Shown here: positions 2,901-32,737 of the stretch, in pieces
How positions within the stretch are numbered: position 1 is the stretch's first letter
How the letters are laid out: every line of letters begins with the position of its first letter
Notes under the pieces: generated by a model
What the model was told of the DNA's origin: nothing
Seen by the model: the letters and a program-made list of their open reading frames with translations, nothing else
Database searches by the model: none
Source: Candidatus Nomurabacteria bacterium
GTDB lineage: Bacteria; Patescibacteriota; Minisyncoccia; Phycocordibacterales; UBA9973
NCBI GenBank assembly: GCA_023898605.1
Contig: CP060230.1
Location: 67,944 to 131,943, forward strand
Length of the DNA: 64,000 nt
Reading direction: 5' to 3'
Translations under genes and position numbers: made by a program

Positions 2901-3272
2901 ATGCAAAACTCAAAAGTTAAATTCAAAACAGACTTAATTGAAAGAGCGTATGATTTTGGTTTAAAAGTTATATTTCTTTGTGACAAGTTACCGCAAAAAA
3001 GAAGTTCTTGGGTTATATCAGATCAAATAATAAGATCTGGCACATCTATCGGAGCAAACCTTGTTGAAGCAAAGTCCTCAAGTTCTAGATTGGAATTTAA
3101 AAGGTTTTACGAAATAGCCTTGAAAAGTGGGAACGAGTCTGTTTATTGGCTTAGACTTTTATTTGATGCAAGTTTAATAAACAAAAAAGATTTTGATTCA
3201 TTAAAAGAAGAGTTAGATGAAATAAATAAAATGGTCGCTAAAAGTGTTATTAGTTTGAAGAAAAAGTTATAA
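2901..3272 (+). CDS. four-helix-bundle protein (23S rRNA intervening-sequence protein family)
   Basis: The string SIGANLVEAKSSSSRLEFKRFYEIALKSGNESVYWLRLL matches the family signature (IGANI.EA....S..DF...L.IA.GS..E..YWL). Confidence 0.75.
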   Translation: MQNSKVKFKTDLIERAYDFGLKVIFLCDKLPQKRSSWVISDQIIRSGTSIGANLVEAKSSSSRLEFKRFYEIALKSGNESVYWLRLLFDASLINKKDFDSLKEELDEINKMVAKSVISLKKKL

Positions 3273-3321: not shown

Positions 3322-4449
3322 ATGCTCAAGATAGGAATTGTTGGACTTCCCAATGTAGGTAAATCAACGCTTTTCAATGCGCTTACAAAAAAGTGTGTTC
3401 CGGCTGAGAATTATCCGTTTTGTACTATAGACCCATCTGTGGGTATTGTTCCTGTGCCAGATGAAAGAGTAGAACTACTTTCAAAGTTTTCTAATTCCGA
3501 GAAGTCTATACCGGCAGCGATAGAGTTTGTCGATATAGCAGGACTCGTAGAAGGTGCAAGCAAGGGAGAGGGCTTGGGAAATAAATTCCTGTCTCATATA
3601 AGAGAAGTAGATGCGATACTAGAAATGGTTAGACTTTTTCCCGCCTCCGCCAAGGCTACAGGCGGGCAAGCCCCTTCTGGCGATATTGTTCATGTCTATG
3701 GGAATATAGACCCACTCAGAGATATCAAGGTTATAAATCTAGAACTTATACTTGCTGATCTAGAAGTTGCAGAAAAAAGAATCGGAACTCTAGCAAGAGA
3801 TGTGAGAAGTGGCAACAAGGAAGCGATACTAGAAGAATCTATTTTGAAAAAAATAATCCCCGCTCTAGAATCAGAAAAGATGATAAACGAAATCGAGTTT
3901 GATGAGAAAGAGGCTGCAAAACTAAAAAGCATGAACTTTCTAACTTCCAAAAAGATAATTTATGGCCTCAACAAGAAAGCCGGTGCCAAAAACTTTGATG
4001 AGTCTGATCCAGAAAAGTTCAAAGAGTTTTGTGATTATATCGAGTCTTCAGGTGCTGGTTGGGTTCTACTCGATGCCAAGATAGAAGATGAACTCAAGGA
4101 TTTCGAGGGTTCAGAAAAAAACGAGATGAGAGAAGCTATGGGCGGAGATGATGATGGTGTGGACCATCTCATAAAAAGGTCTTATGAAATTCTAGGATTA
4201 GAAACATATCTAACAACTGGTCCAGATGAAACTCGTGCGTGGACTATCAAGAAGGGTAGTACTGCACCAGTTGCTGGTATGGCTATACATACAGATTTCA
4301 AAGACAAATTTATCCGTGCAGAAGTTGTCTTCTGGAAAGATCTACTTGATGCAGGTTCTTATGCTGAAGCTAGAGCAAAGGGAAAAGTTAGGACGGAAGG
4401 GAAAGACTATATCGTAAAAGACGGAGATGTGATTGAATTTAAAATATAA
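3322..4449 (+). CDS. ychF: ribosome-binding ATPase YchF
   Basis: Has the P-loop GLPNVGKST, then FCTIDP, DIAGLVEGAS, and the C-terminal TGS-like string TRAWTI..GSTAP.AG.IHTDF..FIRAEV. Confidence 0.95.
   Translation: MLKIGIVGLPNVGKSTLFNALTKKCVPAENYPFCTIDPSVGIVPVPDERVELLSKFSNSEKSIPAAIEFVDIAGLVEGASKGEGLGNKFLSHIREVDAILEMVRLFPASAKATGGQAPSGDIVHVYGNIDPLRDIKVINLELILADLEVAEKRIGTLARDVRSGNKEAILEESILKKIIPALESEKMINEIEFDEKEAAKLKSMNFLTSKKIIYGLNKKAGAKNFDESDPEKFKEFCDYIESSGAGWVLLDAKIEDELKDFEGSEKNEMREAMGGDDDGVDHLIKRSYEILGLETYLTTGPDETRAWTIKKGSTAPVAGMAIHTDFKDKFIRAEVVFWKDLLDAGSYAEARAKGKVRTEGKDYIVKDGDVIEFKI
3640..3678 (+). repeat. in-frame 39-nt GC-rich hairpin module inside ychF (encodes PASAKATGGQAPS)
   Basis: Stem cccgcct (3640-3646) pairs with aggcggg (3660-3666). 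It interrupts the conserved YchF string F..D.IVHV. A related core (caaggctac.ggcggg) recurs upstream of leuS. Confidence 0.6.
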
Positions 4450-5831: not shown

Positions 5832-5870
5832 ATGGAGGGGAAATATGACCATAAAAACATAGAAAAAAAT
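5832..5870 (+). pseudogene. relic of the leuS 5' end (MEGKYDHKNIEKN..)
   Basis: YDHKNIEK parallels the real LeuRS N-terminus NYDHKGIERKW. The relic runs straight into a GC-rich insert. Confidence 0.5.
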
Positions 5871-5932
5871 GGCCCTCCTTCGCTTCTTCTTCGCCAAGTC
5901 TACGAAGAACAAGGCAAGGCTACGGCGGGCGC
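5871..5932 (+). repeat. GC-rich structured insert between the leuS 5' relic and the functional leuS start
   Basis: Contains the hairpin ttcttcg..cgaagaa and the core caaggctacggcgggc, which is also seen inside ychF. Confidence 0.5.
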
Positions 5933-5970
5933 ACAGATATATGCACTAAGGTGAAATATTTAATTTAAGT

Positions 5971-8900
5971 ATGAATAACTATGATCACAAAGGAATAGAA
6001 CGTAAGTGGCAAGAGAGGTGGGAGAAAGACGGTATTTATACTGTTTCGGACAAGGAAGAAAACAAAGATAATTTCTATACTCTAGTAGAATTTACATATC
6101 CATCTGGAGATTTGCATGTTGGCCACTGGTACGCGTTTGCAGTGCCAGATATTTTCGCACGATATAAAAGGATGCAAGGATACAACTCACTTTATCCTAT
6201 GGGATTTGATGCGTTTGGACTACCAGCAGAAAATGCAGCGATAAAACTAGGCGCAGATCCAAAGGTTTGGACATATGAGCAGATGGACAAGATGCGTGGG
6301 CAATTCAAAACAATGGGAGCAAGTTTCGACTGGGATAGAGAGGTAGTTTCTTGCGACCCGAATTATTACAAATGGACACAGTGGATGTTCAACCAATTTC
6401 TAAAAAATGATTTGGTTTATCGCGATACTACCAAGGTAAACTGGTGTCCCAAAGACAAGACAGTTCTTGCCAATGAACAAGTTGTAGACGGCAAATGCGA
6501 GCGATGTGGAAGTGAAGTAGAGCAGAAGAACCAGGATCAGTGGATGATTCGTATTACAAAATATGCCGATAGATTGATAGACGATCTGGATATTCTAGAT
6601 TGGCCAGATGCGATAAAAGATGCACAAAAAGCATGGATAGGAAGAAGCGAAGGAAGTGAGATAAGTTTTTCTCTAAATTATGAAAAAGAAAAAGTAAAAA
6701 ATGAATATTTCAAGTTTAGACCAGAACTTGTTGAATTAATTGAAAAAGGTTTGAAGACAGCAACCTTTAGAATGGAAGCTAAAAATGTTTCTGTTGGCGA
6801 TATTGTTAGTTTGATTAATTGGTCAGATGGCAAAGAAAGTAATCAAAAAGAGTTTGATAAAGCTAAAATAATAAAAGTCTCGGAACATAAATTAGGAGAT
6901 TTGCCACTTGATTATCCTGGTCACGAAAAAGATTCTTCAGTAGAAAAAAGACTTGCAAGGTATCAAGAATACTATGGCGACCACATAACAAACGATTCAA
7001 CTGTTTATATATATGAATTTCTTCCTCTTTCAATTCGTGTTTTCACCACTCGCGCAGACACACTATTTGGCGTGACATATGTTGTACTTGCTCCAGAACA
7101 CCCACTAGTAAATAAACTTCTTGATCAAGTAGAGAACAAAGAAGAAGTAGAAAAGTATATAGAAGAAACAAAGAAAAAGTCAGAACTAGAAAGACAAATT
7201 GGTTCAAAAGATCCTTCGACTGGCTCAGGACTAGGAAAAACTGGCGTAGAATTAAAAGGTATAACTGCAATAAACCCAGCAAATGGTGAAGAAGTGCCAG
7301 TTTGGATTGCAGACTATGTGCTTGCTGGGTATGGTACAGGTGCTGTTATGGCGGTACCTGCTCACGATGAGCGAGATTTTGAATTTGCAAAGAAATATGG
7401 ATTAGATTCTAAAATAGTTATTGTGAATTCGACCGGAGAGTGTACAGACGATGCTATTTCAAGAAATGTTGTTAAATCTTTTATAGAAAAGGACGGAAAT
7501 GTATATTTAGTAAGAGATATAGGTCCAAGCGGAAAGTCTTACTGGTCACTTCCTGGTGGTGGATATGAAGATGCAGAAGACGATATCTCTGCACTTACAA
7601 GAGAAATCATGGAAGAAACTCCATTTCGAAATATAAAAATTGGACAATTCATAGGGGCATCAAGACATTGCTATGATTTCAAAGCTATAAAAAATTCACG
7701 TTTAACAAAAATATTTTACGCAAGTTATGATATTGAGAATAAAAATTCAAACCCTCAAGTTCCTGGAAACTGGTTTCCAAAAGATGAGGCAATAAGGATG
7801 CTTTTGGAAGATGGAATAATAATAGAAGGAAACATACTAAGTAACTACTTTGAAGGAAAAATTAATACAGATAATGGAATTTTGATAAATTCTGGAAATT
7901 TTAATGAAATAACTTCAGAAGAAGCTAAGAAAAAAATCACAGAATTTGTTGGAGGAAAAATGGTAAAGACTTACAGACTTCGTGACTGGGGAATAAGCCG
8001 CCAGAGATATTGGGGTTGTCCTATACCTATAGTTTACGATCCGGAAGGAAAAGCTCACGCGATCCCAGACGAACATTTGCCATGGATATTGCCGACAGAT
8101 GTAGATCATACTCCAGACGGAACACCACCTCTTGCAAGAAGCAAAGAGCTTTTTGAACGAACAGAAAAAATATTTGGCGAAGGTTGGAAGCCAGAAGTAG
8201 AAACAATGGATACATTTGTAGATTCTTCTTGGTATTTCTATAGATACTTAGATAACAAAAACGAAAAAGAATTTGCATCGATAGATAGTATGGATGCATG
8301 GATGCCGATAGATATGTACATGGGAGGAGCAGAGCATACAACTATGCACTTACTATATTCACGATTCTGGACAAAAGCTCTTTATGATCTCGGACTAGTA
8401 AAAGATAACGAGGCATATAAGATGAGACGAAACAGAGGGCTTATACTTGGTCCAGATGGAAACAAGATGAGTAAATCAAAAGGAAACGTCATAAATCCAG
8501 ACGAAGTTGTAGATAGGCTTGGTGCAGATACGGTGCGATTGTACCTTTGTTTTATGGGGCCATACGGAGTGACTGTAAACTATCCGTGGGATCCAAACGG
8601 GGTTGTAGGTGTGAGAAGATTTCTAGAAAGAGTTTGGAAATTGAAAGAAAAAATAGATCCAGAGAAAAAAGTTTGTCGTACAGACCCACTTGTACACAAA
8701 ACAATCAAAGGCGTCACGAGTGACATGGAAGAGTTCAAGTTTAACACTGCTATATCCAAGATGATGATACTATCCAACGCTTTGGAAGGAGAGGATAAGA
8801 TAGTAGAAGCTTCTTATAAAGCCCTGCTTCGTCTTCTTTCACCATTTGCACCACACATAACAGAAGAGTTATGGCAATCTTTTGGACATTCTTCGTCAGG

Positions 8901-9159
8901 CTCAGAACAAGGAACAGAAAGTATCCACCTTTCTTCTTGGCCAGAATACGATGAGAGCATGACAAAAGACGAGACCGTTATGATTGGTATTCAGATTAAC
9001 GGCAAGGTTCGTGGTGAAGTAGAGGTTGGAGACGAAGATACAGAAGAATCAGTGAGAGAGAAGGTTATGTCTATAGACAAGATAAAACCATGGTTAGAAG
9101 GAAAAGAAATCAAGAAATTTATCTACGTAAGCAAGAAGATTGTTAACATTGTCGTATGA
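5971..9159 (+). CDS. leuS: leucyl-tRNA synthetase with two extra inserted domains
   Basis: Has a HIGH-type motif (HVGH), the CP1 strings TTRADTLFG and AVPAHDERDFEFAKKYGL, and KMSKS. At 1062 aa it exceeds the roughly 800-860 aa I recall for bacterial LeuRS. Confidence 0.95.
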   Translation: MNNYDHKGIERKWQERWEKDGIYTVSDKEENKDNFYTLVEFTYPSGDLHVGHWYAFAVPDIFARYKRMQGYNSLYPMGFDAFGLPAENAAIKLGADPKVWTYEQMDKMRGQFKTMGASFDWDREVVSCDPNYYKWTQWMFNQFLKNDLVYRDTTKVNWCPKDKTVLANEQVVDGKCERCGSEVEQKNQDQWMIRITKYADRLIDDLDILDWPDAIKDAQKAWIGRSEGSEISFSLNYEKEKVKNEYFKFRPELVELIEKGLKTATFRMEAKNVSVGDIVSLINWSDGKESNQKEFDKAKIIKVSEHKLGDLPLDYPGHEKDSSVEKRLARYQEYYGDHITNDSTVYIYEFLPLSIRVFTTRADTLFGVTYVVLAPEHPLVNKLLDQVENKEEVEKYIEETKKKSELERQIGSKDPSTGSGLGKTGVELKGITAINPANGEEVPVWIADYVLAGYGTGAVMAVPAHDERDFEFAKKYGLDSKIVIVNSTGECTDDAISRNVVKSFIEKDGNVYLVRDIGPSGKSYWSLPGGGYEDAEDDISALTREIMEETPFRNIKIGQFIGASRHCYDFKAIKNSRLTKIFYASYDIENKNSNPQVPGNWFPKDEAIRMLLEDGIIIEGNILSNYFEGKINTDNGILINSGNFNEITSEEAKKKITEFVGGKMVKTYRLRDWGISRQRYWGCPIPIVYDPEGKAHAIPDEHLPWILPTDVDHTPDGTPPLARSKELFERTEKIFGEGWKPEVETMDTFVDSSWYFYRYLDNKNEKEFASIDSMDAWMPIDMYMGGAEHTTMHLLYSRFWTKALYDLGLVKDNEAYKMRRNRGLILGPDGNKMSKSKGNVINPDEVVDRLGADTVRLYLCFMGPYGVTVNYPWDPNGVVGVRRFLERVWKLKEKIDPEKKVCRTDPLVHKTIKGVTSDMEEFKFNTAISKMMILSNALEGEDKIVEASYKALLRLLSPFAPHITEELWQSFGHSSSGSEQGTESIHLSSWPEYDESMTKDETVMIGIQINGKVRGEVEVGDEDTEESVREKVMSIDKIKPWLEGKEIKKFIYVSKKIVNIVV

Positions 9160-15849: not shown

Positions 15850-15923
15850 AAAACTTATAAATTAATGTAGAATCAGAAAACCGGTTTATGCCGGTTTTTT
15901 GATTGAGAGAAACGCCCCCGTAG

Positions 15924-15966
15924 CCCCGACGCTATGGTCGGGGTCCATACAACTTCACTCGTCGGG
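15924..15966 (+). repeat. family-A GC hairpin module (ccccgacgctatggtcgggg...cgtcggg)
   Basis: The 27-nt string gtagccccgacgctatggtcggggtcc is shared with 16641-16667. Confidence 0.7.
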
Positions 15967-16112: not shown

Positions 16113-16195
16113 CAAATTGTTAGAGACATTGATATCGGGGGGGGTTCTACTTTGTCCTTCGAAACTTTAGTGAAGAAGGAAGGAATAGTTCTGGG

Positions 16196-16224
16196 CTTGC
16201 CCTGTCTGAAATAGGCGGGGTGAA
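16196..16224 (+). repeat. family-B GC hairpin module (degenerate copy) in the T-loop position of the ghost tRNA
   Basis: cttgccctgtctgaaataggcggggtgaa compares with cttgccccgcctgaaataggcggggtgaa at the Val locus. Confidence 0.65.
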
Positions 16225-16633: not shown

Positions 16634-16699
16634 GCTCAGGTAGCCCCGACGCTATGGTCGGGGTCCCGTACTTCTACAAAGTAGAACGTCGGGGCTCAG
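16634..16699 (+). pseudogene. 5' fragment of a ghost tRNA-Phe (GCTCAGGTAG[51-nt insert]CTCAG)
   Basis: Removing 16644-16694, which has ccccgacg...cgtcgggg termini, restores GCTCAGGTAGCTCAG. That string is close to the start of the intact tRNA-Phe. Confidence 0.55.
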
Positions 16700-16702
16700 A
16701 AT

Positions 16703-16963
16703 ATGGCGTGGGTGTATATATTAAAAACTAAATCTGGTAAGTTTTATATTGGTAGCACTATCAATTTAGAGCAAAGATTAAAACACCATAAAGGTGGGAA
16801 TACTCCTTCGACATATAGGTTGAAGTTTGATAGTCTTTTATTGTCTCAAGAATATGATACTTTGAAAGATGCCAGGAGTGTTGAATCAAAATTGAAAAAA
16901 CTCAAACGAAAAGATTATTTACAAAAAATTGTTGAAGATGGTTTTATTAAAATAAAACCCTAA
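16703..16963 (+). CDS. GIY-YIG nuclease family protein (86 aa)
   Basis: Shows VYILKTKSGKFYIGSTINLEQRLKHHKGG. The ATG lies 3 nt after the ghost D-arm CTCAG. Confidence 0.9.
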   Translation: MAWVYILKTKSGKFYIGSTINLEQRLKHHKGGNTPSTYRLKFDSLLLSQEYDTLKDARSVESKLKKLKRKDYLQKIVEDGFIKIKP

Positions 16964-16992: not shown

Positions 16993-17066
16993 GCTCGGGT
17001 AGCTCAGTTGGTTAGAGCACTCGCCTGAAGAGCGAGGTGTCGGCAGTTCGAGTCTGCCCCCGAGCA
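16993..17066 (+). tRNA. tRNA-Phe (anticodon GAA)
   Basis: The acceptor is GCTCGGG/CCCGAGC, the anticodon loop is CTGAAGA and the T loop is TTCGAGT. The flanks tttacaaagt and actttgtaaa extend the acceptor helix by 10 bp. Confidence 0.9.
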
Positions 17067-17092
17067 CTTTGTAAATAAGATTAGATGTGTAT

Positions 17093-17215
17093 GCTCAGTA
17101 CCGACGTCCCGACATGTGGTCGTCGGGAGCACGGAGAGCCGACAGAATCGTCGGCTTTGGTTAGAGCACTCGCCTGAAGAGCGAGGTGTCGGCAGTTCGA
17201 GTCTGCCCCCGAGCA
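17093..17215 (+). pseudogene. 3' part of the ghost tRNA-Phe with a ~57-nt double-hairpin insert after GCTCAG
   Basis: 17157-17216 is a 60-bp perfect repeat of 17008-17067. There is no matching 5' acceptor strand. The insert holds the hairpins tcccgac/gtcggga and gccgac/gtcggc. Confidence 0.6.
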
Positions 17216-17249: not shown

Positions 17250-17327
17250 ATGGTACACTACACTTACATTTTAAAAAGCTTAAAGGATGGCAAGTATTAT
17301 ATAGGGTCAACCTCCGATTTGGGCTAG
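17250..17327 (+). pseudogene. truncated GIY-YIG N-terminal remnant (25 codons)
   Basis: Reads MVHYTYILKSLKDGKYYIGSTSDLG and then a stop. Confidence 0.6.
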
Positions 17328-25519: not shown

Positions 25520-25644
25520 TATCTTTGCCAGAAAAAATTCGAGCTTCACTAATTTTTTAGTGAAGCTCTTTTGTTTTTCTATTTGCCCGCCCCGCCAAAA
25601 AACAAATTCGTCCGCTTTATTTATTTTGAAAACAGGTTCCATTT

Positions 25645-25765
25645 TGGTGGGCGATACAGGACTCGAACCTGTGGCCTTTTCAACGTCATCCCGCCTATTT
25701 AGGACGGGATAAAATGAACGCTCTAGTTCACCCCGCCTATTTCAGGCGGGGCAAGCTGAGCTAAT
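25645..25765 (-). pseudogene. 3' portion of a ghost tRNA-Val (encodes CCA) with hairpin inserts in the D loop and anticodon loop
   Basis: On the minus strand it reads ATTAGCTCAG[29-nt hairpin]CTAGAGCGTTC[27-nt hairpin insert]TGACGTTGAAAAGGCCACAGGTTCGAGTCCTGTATCGCCCACCA. Confidence 0.6.
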
Positions 25766-25992
25766 TTTTCTTTGTAATCTTTATTTTTCTTTTTTAGCCA
25801 CTTTTCGTGTTTTCTGGCTAGCTCATAATTTTTATATTCTTTGGTGTAAACTAAAACATATGGTTTTAGTTTAGAGGAGGTTTTTAATTTACCACTATTG
25901 TGTTCTTTTAATCGCCTAGTTGGATTATCAGAAATACCCACATAAAAACTTTGGTTTATTTTACTTTTTATAAGATAAACAAAGCAAGACAT
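25723..25992 (-). CDS. GIY-YIG nuclease family protein (89 aa)
   Basis: Shows FVYLIKSKINQSFYVGISDNPTRRLKEHNSG. The start codon lies 1 nt after the tRNA-Val 3' end. The last 14 codons read through the ghost D arm and hairpin. Confidence 0.85.
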   Translation of the reverse strand: MSCFVYLIKSKINQSFYVGISDNPTRRLKEHNSGKLKTSSKLKPYVLVYTKEYKNYELARKHEKWLKKKNKDYKEKLAQLAPPEIGGVN

Positions 25993-26066: not shown

Positions 26067-26474
26067 GCTCAAATAAAATTACTACAGTACAAATTGTATC
26101 AATAAAAAATAAAATATGCTCTACTTCACCCCGCCTATTTCAGGCGGGGCAAGCTGAGCTAATCGCTCGCTCAAATAAAATTACTACAGTACAAATTGTA
26201 TCAATAAAAAATAAAATATGCTCTACTTCACCCCGCCTATTTCAGGCGGGGCAAGCTGAGCTAATCGCTCGCTCAAATAAAATTACTACAGTACAAATTG
26301 TATCAATAAAAAATAAAATATGCTCTACTTCACCCCGCCTATTTCAGGCGGGGCAAGCTGAGCTAATCGCTCGCTCAAATAAAATTACTACAGTACAAAT
26401 TGTATCAATAAAAAATAAAATATGCTCTACTTCACCCCGCCTATTTCAGGCGGGGCAAGCTGAGCTAATCGCCC
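26051..26474 (-). repeat. four perfect 102-bp tandem units plus the ghost tRNA-Val 5' end
   Basis: Units start at 26051, 26153, 26255 and 26357, with a partial unit at 26459. On the minus strand each unit contains an AT-rich promoter-like region, GAGCGATTAGCTCAG, a 29-nt hairpin and GTAGAGC. The array ends in GGGCGATTAGCTCAG (26474-26460), which matches the ghost 3' acceptor. Confidence 0.85.
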
Positions 26475-29135: not shown

Positions 29136-29565
29136 CTCAAAAAGCGCCACTTGGCGCTTTTTATTTTTGTGAAGTTTTGCCACCCTCCCGTTCGTGTGTG
29201 CGTAAAACCCCGCTCGTAAGGACGAGAGGGGGAGGTGCGAGCGGGGCTCCCTAAAAACAAAACCACTCATATTATAAGTGGTTTTGGAGCAAGGTATACT
29301 CATCTGTCGCTATCTAAGTTACCAGTTCTTATACAACTGCTCATCAAGCTCTAAAGATATTGATAACTATTGCTCAGTCTGACCTTTATTTTCCGCGTCG
29401 TTGGCGCAAAGCACTTGCGGCAACAGATTTTTCTTTTTTTCGAGGGAGGTCCTTTCTCAAAAGTTTTGATGCAAGTTTGCCAACTTTTTTACTAGTTTTT
29501 GCCATAAAATTATATAAATTAATTATTAATATCGACCAATATAGAAATATGTGGAAAACTGTACA

Positions 29566-32305: not shown

Positions 32306-32365
32306 ATATCTATATAATAGTATTCCATTGTGTATTATTCCAAATTGCCATATAATTTATATAGA

Positions 32366-32455
32366 CCCGCCCGAAGCCCCATCGCCATACCTTTTCAAAA
32401 AGAATCCCTTCGCGAAAAAGAAAAAGAATGGAGATGCGGAACGGGGCGAGGGCGG
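32366..32455. repeat. GC-rich long imperfect inverted repeat at the island edge
   Basis: cccgcccgaagccccatcgcc is roughly complementary to ggagatgcggaacggggcgagggcgg across an A-rich loop. Confidence 0.4.
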
Positions 32456-32737
32456 AGCGCCGAGGTACAAGGTGCTAGTCGGCATGATTAGTAGTTTTCG
32501 AAAAAAGTTCGCGCATTGGTTATAATTTCATCACAAAGTACACAAAAATCCCACGCAGGTGGGATTTTTGGTCTTTGTGACCCTAGTCGTGGTGCGACCA
32601 TACGATTCGTTGCTCCCACAATGCTTTTTTGGCTTTTTCTATTATATCAAGTCGACCCTTGTCGAGCGACAAAAAGTGACAAAAGTGACACAGGTTTAAA
32701 TAAAAAGGTTACAGCAATCTGTAACCTTTTTGCTACT

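Follow-up and report, generated by a model that had tools for sequence, protein, structure and literature searches.

The ychF gene of a Candidatus Nomurabacteria bacterium, contained in a 64,000-nt stretch of contig CP060230.1 (positions 67,944 to 131,943; hereafter the window, numbered from its first letter), was found to hold at 3640-3672 a GC-rich hairpin that is a copy of a non-coding hairpin repeat of 32-33 nt; the copy entered the gene secondarily, and the family is probably best explained as selfish, horizontally spreading DNA. A sequence-only reading of the window had described a GC-rich hairpin module lying in frame in ychF, and this was borne out, with the coordinates as described, a 47-nt island of 68% GC (40% in the whole of ychF and 32-40% in the window, per 2 kb) and a 7-bp stem. 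The accompanying proposal, that the module is a miniature palindromic element tolerated inside a coding sequence, was upheld, at a scale well beyond what had been supposed, by the match of the segment to a model of the family, by its absence from the nearest YchF relatives and by the frequent in-frame position of the family in other housekeeping genes. The features concerned are the following:

3322-4449, plus strand: ychF (ribosome-binding ATPase YchF), the intact host gene, a 375-aa open reading frame (ORF)
3640-3672, plus strand: hairpin element copy of 33 nt, in the form with one extra base (+1 form), matched over its full length by covariance model R1 and agreeing with the family consensus
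3640-3645, plus strand: 5' arm of this copy, CCCGCC
3646-3659, plus strand: loop, TCCGCCAAGGCTAC
3660, plus strand: extra A
3661-3666, plus strand: 3' arm, GGCGGG
3667-3672, plus strand: tail, CAAGCC
3673-3678, plus strand: codons CCT TCT (Pro-Ser), also missing from the nearest relatives in DNA alignments
3691-3693, plus strand: codon of His124, placed by alignment to 1JAL and 8kie

The product of the 375-aa ORF at 3322-4449 matched the Pfam families MMR_HSR1 (2.6e-21) and YchF-GTPase_C (9.1e-33), aligned with Haemophilus influenzae YchF (1JAL) at 334 bits and differs by one residue from the protein encoded on two independent ENA contigs (L001 and L002), which show no differences over the 161-nt aligned stretch around the insert. 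The segment reads 3640 cccgcct ccgccaaggctac aggcggg caagcc ccttct 3678, with pairing of T3646 and A3660 lengthening the stem of this copy to 7 bp, and positions 3640-3672 are translated as P-A-S-A-K-A-T-G-G-Q-A. Of the 14 codons in the island, 9 have G or C in third position, where 3.3 would be expected from the synonymous usage of the window (P ~0.001). As this excess of GC at third codon positions (GC3) goes beyond the needs of the amino acids, the composition of the island is foreign at the nucleotide level and cannot be put down to its Ala, Gly and Pro codons alone. The pattern CCCGCC-N(5-30)-GGCGGG occurred seven times in the window and not once in 100 shuffles; the 16-mer CAAGGCTACAGGCGGG (up to three mismatches) and CCAAGKCTAC (one mismatch) were not enriched there. 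The stability of the hairpin was dropped as an argument, as its folding energy of -18.6 kcal/mol is unexceptional for its composition (z -0.84 against same-composition shuffles, 39 of 200 of which fold equally well). The ychF hairpin alone therefore proves nothing, and its significance lies in its membership of a repeat family.

The extent of the module required correction. It had been delimited as 39 nt encoding 13 extra residues; its stem and composition stood, whereas the element proper covers 33 nt (3640-3672) and the canonical form 32 nt, and the net excess of the window protein is 11 residues against 1JAL and E. coli YchF and 6 codons against its nearest relatives. The two codons at 3673-3678, which correspond to CCT GCA and TCT TTA in two other module-bearing ychF loci (L008 and L010, respectively), appear from the alignments to be part of the replaced loop and to lie outside the conserved element. 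Similarly, the suggestion that the element is tolerated because its length is a multiple of three applies to the 33-nt ychF copy; the canonical 32-nt unit has no such length, and the copies in ychF are +1 variants.

The family was delineated with two patterns. A 29-nt degenerate pattern taken from the three YchF modules described below was used in a first scan of a metagenome collection and found six further loci outside ychF, on contigs of 39-61% GC, in non-coding DNA and in an MnmA-like gene (identified by eye only); the matches were exact wherever the pattern is fixed and, at seven further positions, kept to two-base classes. A relaxed pattern, TCCGCNAARGCTNC N3-4 GGNCARGCC, was scanned over genome and viral contigs and occurred on at least 120 of the former and 10 of the latter. 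All family counts, reading frames, host lists and alignments given here rest on the copies among the matches listed, at least 139 of them distinct. The common form accounts for 124 of these and a form with an additional base for 15, and the GC content of the hosts ranges over 33-74%. Hosts in the candidate phyla radiation (CPR) include Saccharibacteria, Kaiser-, Roizman-, Nomura-, Magasanik-, Doudna-, Colwell- and Peregrinibacteria and other Patescibacteria, and the remainder comprise Acidobacteriota, Verrucomicrobiota (including an Akkermansia metagenome-assembled genome, MAG), Planctomycetota, Cyanobacteria, Nitrospiraceae, Bacteroidota, Elusimicrobia, alpha-, beta-, gamma- and deltaproteobacteria and Actinobacteria-type MAGs. 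One host, Nitratireductor rhodophyticola, is a cultured isolate; nearly all copies come from MAGs.

The general layout of the unit is arm(6)-TCCGCYAARGCTWC-arm'(6)-CARGCC, with CCCGCC-TCCGCCAAGGCTAC-GGCGGG-CAAGCC as the consensus sequence. The conserved part consists of the 14-nt loop and the CARGCC tail, while the arms vary and covary. AT-rich hosts display the element as a sharp, GC-rich block of 32 nt between flanks that are not conserved. No target-site duplication was found, direct repeats of 2-5 nt at the junctions being no commoner than with shuffled flanks. In a gapless alignment of 124 sequences, 92.7% of the arm cells pair (83.7% after shuffling), and double-sided arm changes numbered 111 against 36 in shuffles, a value reached by none of 500 shuffles; perfect arms were present in 72 of the 124 copies, compared with 30 when partners were shuffled, and sliding the partner by 1-3 columns left only 29-54% pairing. 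Arm pair 8-27 occurs as GC 58, UA 19, AU 11 and CG 6 times, and pair 5-30 as CG 76 and UA 26 times. An inner pair, 16-19 (CG 74, UA 40), closes a two-base AA loop, which might be more plausible in single-stranded DNA than in RNA; this is a hint only, because in the usual frame the two positions also fall at the third base of a codon.

Covariance model R1, built from 124 independent copies in other genomes, matched window positions 3636-3678 at 42 bits (E 7e-12) over model positions 1-42 with one inserted A. The ychF copy agrees with the family layout at 14 of 14 loop positions, its arms are complementary and its tail is CAAGCC. The motif is repeated, as the sequence-only reading had supposed, both elsewhere in this window and in other genomes. 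No Rfam family was matched at E values up to 10, apart from chance microRNA and small nucleolar RNA matches. Neither the nucleotide and peptide strings of the element nor, in topical searches, any description of it was found in the searchable literature, which omits most subscription journals. An origin from rRNA, signal recognition particle RNA or tRNA was also considered, and we know of no convincing similarity to any of them.

Comparison with other YchF proteins showed the module to be a secondary, derived and patchy feature. The census covered the best 120 homologues, which are patescibacterial (Nomurabacteria or Paceibacteria-like) and 70-77% identical to the window protein. The nearest relatives (P0002-P0008, 76% identical, on syntenic UDG...ychF...leuS contigs) read FPLTGGDGDVTHVYG where the window has FPASAKATGGQAPSGDIVHVYG, their loop being FPLTGGDG; at the DNA level the window gene has 18 extra bases and a loop that cannot be aligned with theirs. 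Across the clade the loop is 7 to 22 residues long and rich in G, A, S and N. An alignment of orthologues, proposed earlier as a check, did not find the segment conserved across YchF: the module is present in three scattered lineages among these homologues, the other two carriers being P0033 (PASAKATDGQAPAN) and P0041 (PTSAKASDGQASLN), whose DNA shows homology to the window module along 36 nt, with 4 differences in P0033 and 8 in P0041. The three carriers are widely separated in a neighbour-joining tree of YchF built without the loop columns, and their closest relatives (76-90% identical) have an ordinary loop of 7-8 residues, as exemplified by the neighbours of P0041 at about 90% identity (P0090, P0093 and others) with loops of the PLKSDTGN type. 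Similarly, L010, which has the module, shows 36 nt (ACCTCC...TCTTTA) between ordinary flanks in place of the 18 nt CTCAAGAGTGATACAGGT of L147 and L148, which are without it. As vertical inheritance with loss cannot repeatedly regenerate the ancestral loop, the module must have entered on three or more occasions, whether by gain or by transfer. A vertically inherited, lineage-specific YchF loop was ruled out by the loop census and the tree, P0002-P0008, P0090 and P0093 being without the module. The possibility that the CARGCC tail is derived from the target, as in IS608, was rejected: no CARGCC-like sequence was found at the site in the module-less ychF relatives, and the tail was therefore counted as part of the element. 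In the gene neighbourhood, a PF05635 protein ('23S rRNA-intervening sequence protein') is encoded at 2901-3272, directly upstream of ychF, both in the window and on L001 and L002; at this position L003 and L006, relatives without the module, have NYN or DUF2726 genes and no such protein.

In the protein, the 11-residue gap relative to 1JAL falls right before DIVHV, and the loop bearing the insert ends three residues ahead of His124, the counterpart of the catalytic His114 of E. coli YchF, which is Ala in the aligned position of H114A chain 8kie. His114, which is critical for ATPase activity, is located in a G-domain loop of high flexibility (PMC10144078, table 1), and the H114A mutant is without hydrolysis (PMC11814078). 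YchF is universally conserved, yet a delta-ychF E. coli strain is viable and was used in the latter study (PMC11814078), so that to call the gene essential, as had been done, was too strong. An AlphaFold model of the window protein, made from 108 sequences (mean predicted local distance difference test score, pLDDT, 78.6; predicted template modelling score, pTM, 0.77), has residues 110-121 at pLDDT below 50, as coil between strand 98-104 and helix 131-162; further stretches below 50 are 26-38, 77-85 and 317-328, the first two of which we take to be the switch regions. Placing the loop on the YchF structure, a check proposed earlier, gave a predicted disordered segment just before the catalytic histidine. 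According to the model, the element would have landed in a naturally disordered surface loop, which fits its tolerance and recalls the argument made for insertions of Rickettsia palindromic elements (RPEs; PMC10969869). For YchF, this means that the flexible loop bearing the catalytic histidine accommodates a foreign insert of 11 residues. A distinct YchF, encoded in the Saccharibacteria MAG CAYUQA010000107 (L043 253-1494), carries the element at another site, inside its C-terminal YchF-GTPase_C/TGS domain (..LLR[PASAKASADRPG]SGGQAW..), followed by a partial second copy.

The coding context of the family was analysed in hosts of at most 50% GC, since long spurious ORFs are rare there. Among the matches listed, 45 copies belong to such hosts; 27 of these lie in sense within ORFs of at least 200 aa, all in a single frame (frame 0), with 5 of the others antisense and about 11 non-coding. 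The usual in-frame peptide is P-(A/S/T)-S-A-K-A-(S/T)-x-(G/D)-K-P, and the host genes identified with Pfam encode MetRS, ValRS, IleRS, CysRS, ArgRS, PheRS-beta, GAPDH, DnaG, RecJ and YchF. The junction between STLGW and P is occupied both in MetRS (L054, L067, L068 and L134) and in ValRS (L080, L087 and L110), in several CPR lineages, and the arms of these copies differ between lineages and are mostly paired. Several non-coding copies abut tRNA genes (L017, L038, L069 and two in L117), with an overlap of 2-5 nt between arm and acceptor stem; in N. rhodophyticola (L055 134-244) the 5' arm CCAGCC starts within the encoded CCA end of tRNA-Gln, and the 3' arm GGCTGG matches it. Microhomology is seen at many junctions, at the 5' end with a Pro codon of the host, in CysRS with GRPG, and also with tRNA ends. 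One copy (L098 6437-6502) is exactly centred in a host palindrome (atcccgtat, element, gggtacgggat), a placement that suggests insertion into DNA prone to form hairpins or cruciforms.

A pattern test for perfect 6-bp arms around the loop, with up to three mismatches in the loop, found exactly three sites in the window, compared with 0.11 per simulated window. The further copies and possible relatives of the element in the window are:

5884-5915, plus strand: inner, AT-shifted degenerate copy upstream of leuS, TTCTTC-TTCGCCAAGTCTAC-GAAGAA-CAAGGC
5873-5935, plus strand: outer degenerate copy, CCCTCC TTCGC (inner copy) AAGGCTAC GGCGGG CGCACA, read directly from the sequence
16149-16180, minus strand: AT-shifted copy downstream of tRNA-Arg, TCCTTC-TTCACTAAAGTTTC-GAAGGA-CAAAGT
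16188-16224, minus strand: short-loop hairpin with a GGGCAAGCC tail, adjoining the 16149-16180 copy; R1 11.8 bits, E 0.052, arms and tail only
25731-25756, plus strand: 'family B' hairpin, CCCCGCCT ATTTC AGGCGGGG CAAGC, inside tRNA D-arm fragments

The recurrence that had been noted upstream of leuS is real, if degenerate, and consists of two copies that read as a nested insertion, the inner one in the loop of the outer. The inner copy scored only 3.5 bits with R1 in a full-length alignment; it was accepted because of the collinearity of that alignment, its perfect arms (6/6 paired, with 12/14 loop and 5/6 tail positions matching) and the pattern test. In the outer copy, CAAGGCTAC-GGCGGGC gave a 17-nt BLAST match to the ychF copy. 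The similarity at this locus is clear only once the family consensus is known. The copy downstream of tRNA-Arg was matched by R1 at 16152-16180 (minus strand; 15.4 bits, E 0.0035) and has arms paired 6/6 and a loop agreeing at 11/14 positions; the adjoining hairpin at 16188-16224 is possibly a relative. The 'family B' hairpins of the tRNA loci, whose unit recurs at 26129, 26231, 26333 and 26435, had been linked to the ychF module by their stems. They do share its CCCGCCT/AGGCGGG arms and CAAGC tail, but have a different, short loop, and although the hairpin folds strongly (z -6.4) it scored only 6.7 bits with R1, so that these hairpins may at most be cousins of the element.

The leuS locus itself shows a further rearrangement. 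Within 5832-5970 the N-terminal part of leuS is present a second time in diverged form (MEGKYDHKNIEK...), about 76% identical at the nucleotide level to the real start, MNNYDHKGIERKW, at 5971. The nested hairpin copies come directly after this duplicate, followed by a new Shine-Dalgarno-like AAGGTG. The arrangement gives the impression that the old 5' end of leuS was disrupted by an insertion after the Trp codon and that a second 5' end took over. The LeuS protein (5971-9159, 1062 aa) has an ASCH domain (residues 248-352) and a NUDIX domain (506-610) inserted in or beside the editing domain; the LeuS proteins of the relatives L003 and L006 have the NUDIX domain and no recorded ASCH.

Taken as selfish DNA, the family would follow the model of the RPEs, with copies in many phyla, on viral contigs, in intergenic DNA, at tRNA ends and nested in one another, and above all in frame in housekeeping genes of AT-rich CPR bacteria. 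We would guess that the hairpin, folded in single-stranded DNA, is recognised by an enzyme acting in trans, in the manner of HUH transposases such as the REP-associated tyrosine transposases (RAYTs; REP, repetitive extragenic palindrome) or of those of the IS200/IS605 type, a kind preferred here because its members recognise a hairpin by its shape, not by the sequence of its arms, and insert without duplicating the target site. In view of the microhomology at many junctions, of the replacement seen in ychF and of a unit length that is no multiple of three, individual events might have occurred by capture during break repair or by short-patch recombination between alleles. After insertion, purifying selection would keep only those copies that are in frame, free of stops and located in loops. 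In ychF, the copy would have replaced a short ancestral loop of the P-L-T-G-G-D-G type before the catalytic histidine, and it could have been tolerated there since the site is a disordered surface loop and the +1 variant preserves the reading frame, in the only frame whose peptide is small, polar and without stops. The common variant and site of the three YchF lineages would probably be due to short-patch recombination between alleles or to repeated capture at a permissive site with microhomology.

Several observations weigh against a selfish, mobile family and have to be set beside those that favour it. Neither transposition nor excision was seen, nor any polymorphism of presence or absence among near-identical strains, and the family therefore is, or was, mobile only by inference. 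The density is low (one intact and three degenerate copies in the 64-kb window, and some 10 more across 335 kb of CPR loci), unlike that of high-copy REPs; the 32-nt unit alone cannot insert in frame; and the event in ychF was a replacement and not a clean insertion, as the comparison of L010 with L147 indicates. The ychF hairpin is degraded elsewhere, with a C.A mismatch in L008 and no more than 3+2 bp left in L010, where one G-C pair is exchanged for A-T. The covariation counts sequences and not independent events, so that arm subfamilies may be inherited, and some of the matches from GC-rich genomes fall within proteins rich in Ala, Lys and Pro and might be coding sequence that only resembles the element. 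Further points argue for function, namely the loop conserved across phyla, the perfect arms kept by the AT-shifted copies (TTCTTC/GAAGAA and TCCTTC/GAAGGA) and the arm in L055 that is compensated to the tRNA CCA end. Loop conservation together with paired arms in AT-shifted copies keeps alive the explanation that the hairpin is a selected module maintained in place, in ychF as elsewhere, either as an mRNA or single-stranded DNA signal for a conserved factor or as a useful P-A-S-A-K-A-x-x-G-K-P linker. This explanation, which we regard as improbable though not negligible, would account for a 14-nt loop that is near-invariant over many phyla between covarying arms, for the 6/6 pairing of the AT-shifted window copies, for the compensated A-T pair through which the L055 arm pairs with the CCA end, for a single MetRS site with different but paired arms by lineage (CCCGCC/GGCGGA and CCCTCC/GGAGGG) and for the strong single-frame bias. 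It fits poorly, however, with host genes and sites that are unrelated, with close relatives that do without the element, with the occupation of both orientations and of non-coding DNA, and with the degraded hairpins of L008 and L010, where the peptide is also only loosely kept. Moreover, the arm subfamilies could have been inherited from master copies rather than compensated in place, and the frame bias is expected from purifying selection on random insertions, given that one forward frame holds TAA (in the CTAAAG variant) and one reverse frame TAG.

A different route into ychF, from another module-bearing ychF allele by short-patch homologous recombination after a single historical insertion into that gene, concerns the entry only and is compatible with a selfish family. 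It appears less likely than not, but deserves to be taken seriously: all three YchF lineages have the module at the same site and in the same frame, share the rare +1 form (CGGAYGG or CAGGCGG for CGGCGG) and a YCT codon after the tail, and have highly conserved flanks (GAAATGGT..TTTYCC and CAYGTNTATGG) that could support recombination. No co-converted flanking tract was seen, however, the L010 flanks matching L147 and L148 up to the loop, and as only +1 forms stay in frame here, selection alone could repeatedly have picked the same variant. It is very improbable that the segment is an ordinary, lineage-specific, hypervariable YchF loop in which GC-rich Ala, Gly, Pro and Ser codons and a hairpin arose by chance. 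The variable length and G/A/S/N-rich composition of the clade's loops and the unexceptional hairpin energy would allow it, but the 42 bits obtained against a model built only from copies of other genomes, the 29-nt match to unrelated loci, the anomalous GC3 and the identical module in non-sister YchF lineages would not. Scarcely credible, finally, is an artefact of assembly, chimerism or contamination, for which only the predominance of MAGs among the sources of the copies could be adduced: three independent assemblies (the window, ERZ27309384 and ERZ28660125) agree exactly in the ychF insert, the copies keep host reading frames open, their arms and flanks vary, and one of them comes from the cultured N. 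rhodophyticola.

Among the known systems with which the element was compared, the intrinsic terminators of this genome (50802-50822, CCCGCC..AGGCGGG then TTTTT) have the same arm sequence as the ychF copy; the latter, however, is without the T-run, has CAAGCCCCTTCTGGCG after the hairpin and a conserved 14-nt loop, and lies inside an ORF. The small dispersed repeats of heterocyst-forming cyanobacteria, which Elhai and colleagues reportedly described in 2008 (Genome Res), are about 21-27 nt long, partly palindromic, apparently mobile and able to nest, and they resemble the element in all these respects; as far as is known, they are restricted to one cyanobacterial group and show no preference for a single coding frame in essential genes. 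The RPEs, of about 150 bp and in ten families confined to Rickettsia (Ogata et al. 2000, 2002, as summarised in PMC10969869), are likewise palindromic repeats without a gene of their own that lie in frame in unrelated housekeeping genes, adding a peptide without destroying the protein, and that also occur in non-coding DNA. They differ in size and host range, the present element having 32-33 nt (11 residues), a single conserved loop and hosts of 33-74% GC in many phyla. REPs are extragenic, high-copy and lineage-specific, and they have a GTAG or CGTC tag at one end of the repeat (PMC3733652). The REP/REPIN systems with their RAYTs (HUH Y1 enzymes), as described in PMC3116915 and PMC3733652, resemble the element in being GC-rich imperfect palindromes of 20-40 nt with variable arms that are recognised by shape; they share with it the lack of a target-site duplication and the presence of GTAG, here on the reverse strand. 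That GTAG, however, represents the first four loop bases, between the arms and not at an end, and the element is mostly intragenic in AT-rich hosts (27 of the 45 copies, among the matches listed) and of low density. No transposase family was matched in a Pfam scan of 14 window ORFs, in which no search aimed at RAYTs was made. MITEs (miniature transposable elements with inverted repeats; ERIC, Correia and BOX) can fuse in frame with host ORFs (PMC10969869) and are, like the element, non-autonomous repeats read through as part of a host protein, but they measure 100-400 bp and have the terminal inverted repeats of a parent insertion sequence, and they make target-site duplications; no such duplication was found here. 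By these analogies, the element would work like the RPEs, while standing apart from them in size and host range, from the REPs in tag position and copy number and from the MITEs in its junctions without duplication.

That selfish or palindromic DNA can be read through as protein is already known; the 32-nt family appears to be new, in that no prior description of it was found, although one may exist. A single 32-nt hairpin biased towards in-frame positions across at least 10 phyla and phage contigs could conceivably be the smallest and most widespread mobile or domesticated bacterial element known, a claim we put forward only tentatively. The pairing of the arms after AT-amelioration, the CCA compensation in L055 and the covarying inner C-AA-G pair suggest that the hairpin may be maintained in place and be more than a genome parasite, and the inner pair points to a structure in single-stranded DNA. 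The question raised is what recognises a loop that is conserved from Acidobacteriota to Saccharibacteria, be it an enzyme or a host factor; if the reading is true, a universal enzyme or factor that reads this loop remains to be found. Some of the short GC-rich insertions in the housekeeping proteins of CPR/Patescibacteria may then be copies of one promiscuous hairpin and not lineage-specific innovations, and the signature arm-TCCGCYAARGCTWC-arm'-CARGCC could serve as a simple marker with which to follow the horizontal flow of DNA between the GC-rich phyla of soil and groundwater and the AT-rich CPR bacteria.

Other hairpins and rearrangements were observed in the window, chiefly at tRNA loci. 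Two GC-rich, apparently non-coding islands with strong pairing potential, at 29208-29255 and 32360-32480 (e.g. CCCCGCTCGTAAGGACGAGAGGGGGAGGTGCGAGCGGGG), had no Rfam match at the gathering threshold. A different hairpin, GTAGCCCCGACGCTATGGTCGGGG, is present at 15920-15944 and 16640-16665, where GTAG is followed by a perfect 7-bp stem in a REP-like manner, and both copies stand in place of the D-arm of tRNA-like 5' fragments. Directly after tRNA-Phe (16993-17067), a second, 5'-truncated tRNA-Phe at 17090-17207 (Rfam 31.9 bits) has a 60-nt GC-rich insert (ACCGACGTCCCGACATGTGGTCGTCGGGAGCACGGAGAGCCGACAGAATCGTCGGCTT) in its D-loop. Upstream of tRNA-Val, 26067-26470 (read on the minus strand) consists of four tandem 102-nt units, each comprising a promoter-like AT-rich stretch and the first ~45 nt of a tRNA, in which the hairpin CCCCGCCTGAAATAGGCGGGG interrupts the D-loop. 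The same D-loop hairpin, CCCCGCCTGAAATAGGCGGGG, occurs in a tRNA-like remnant at 25640-25770 (minus strand), which has a second hairpin (CCCGTCCTAAATAGGCGGG) in the anticodon region and received no ARAGORN call. Small free-standing GIY-YIG nuclease ORFs lie beside the rearranged tRNA loci, at 16703-16963 (plus strand), 25723-25992 (minus strand) and, truncated, 17251-17320 (plus strand), with Pfam matches of 4e-14 and 1.5e-14. The ORF at 25723-25992 reads through the tRNA D-arm fragment and its hairpin (...LAQLAPPEIGGVN), and the arrangement of these loci hints at a turnover of tRNA genes driven by homing endonucleases.

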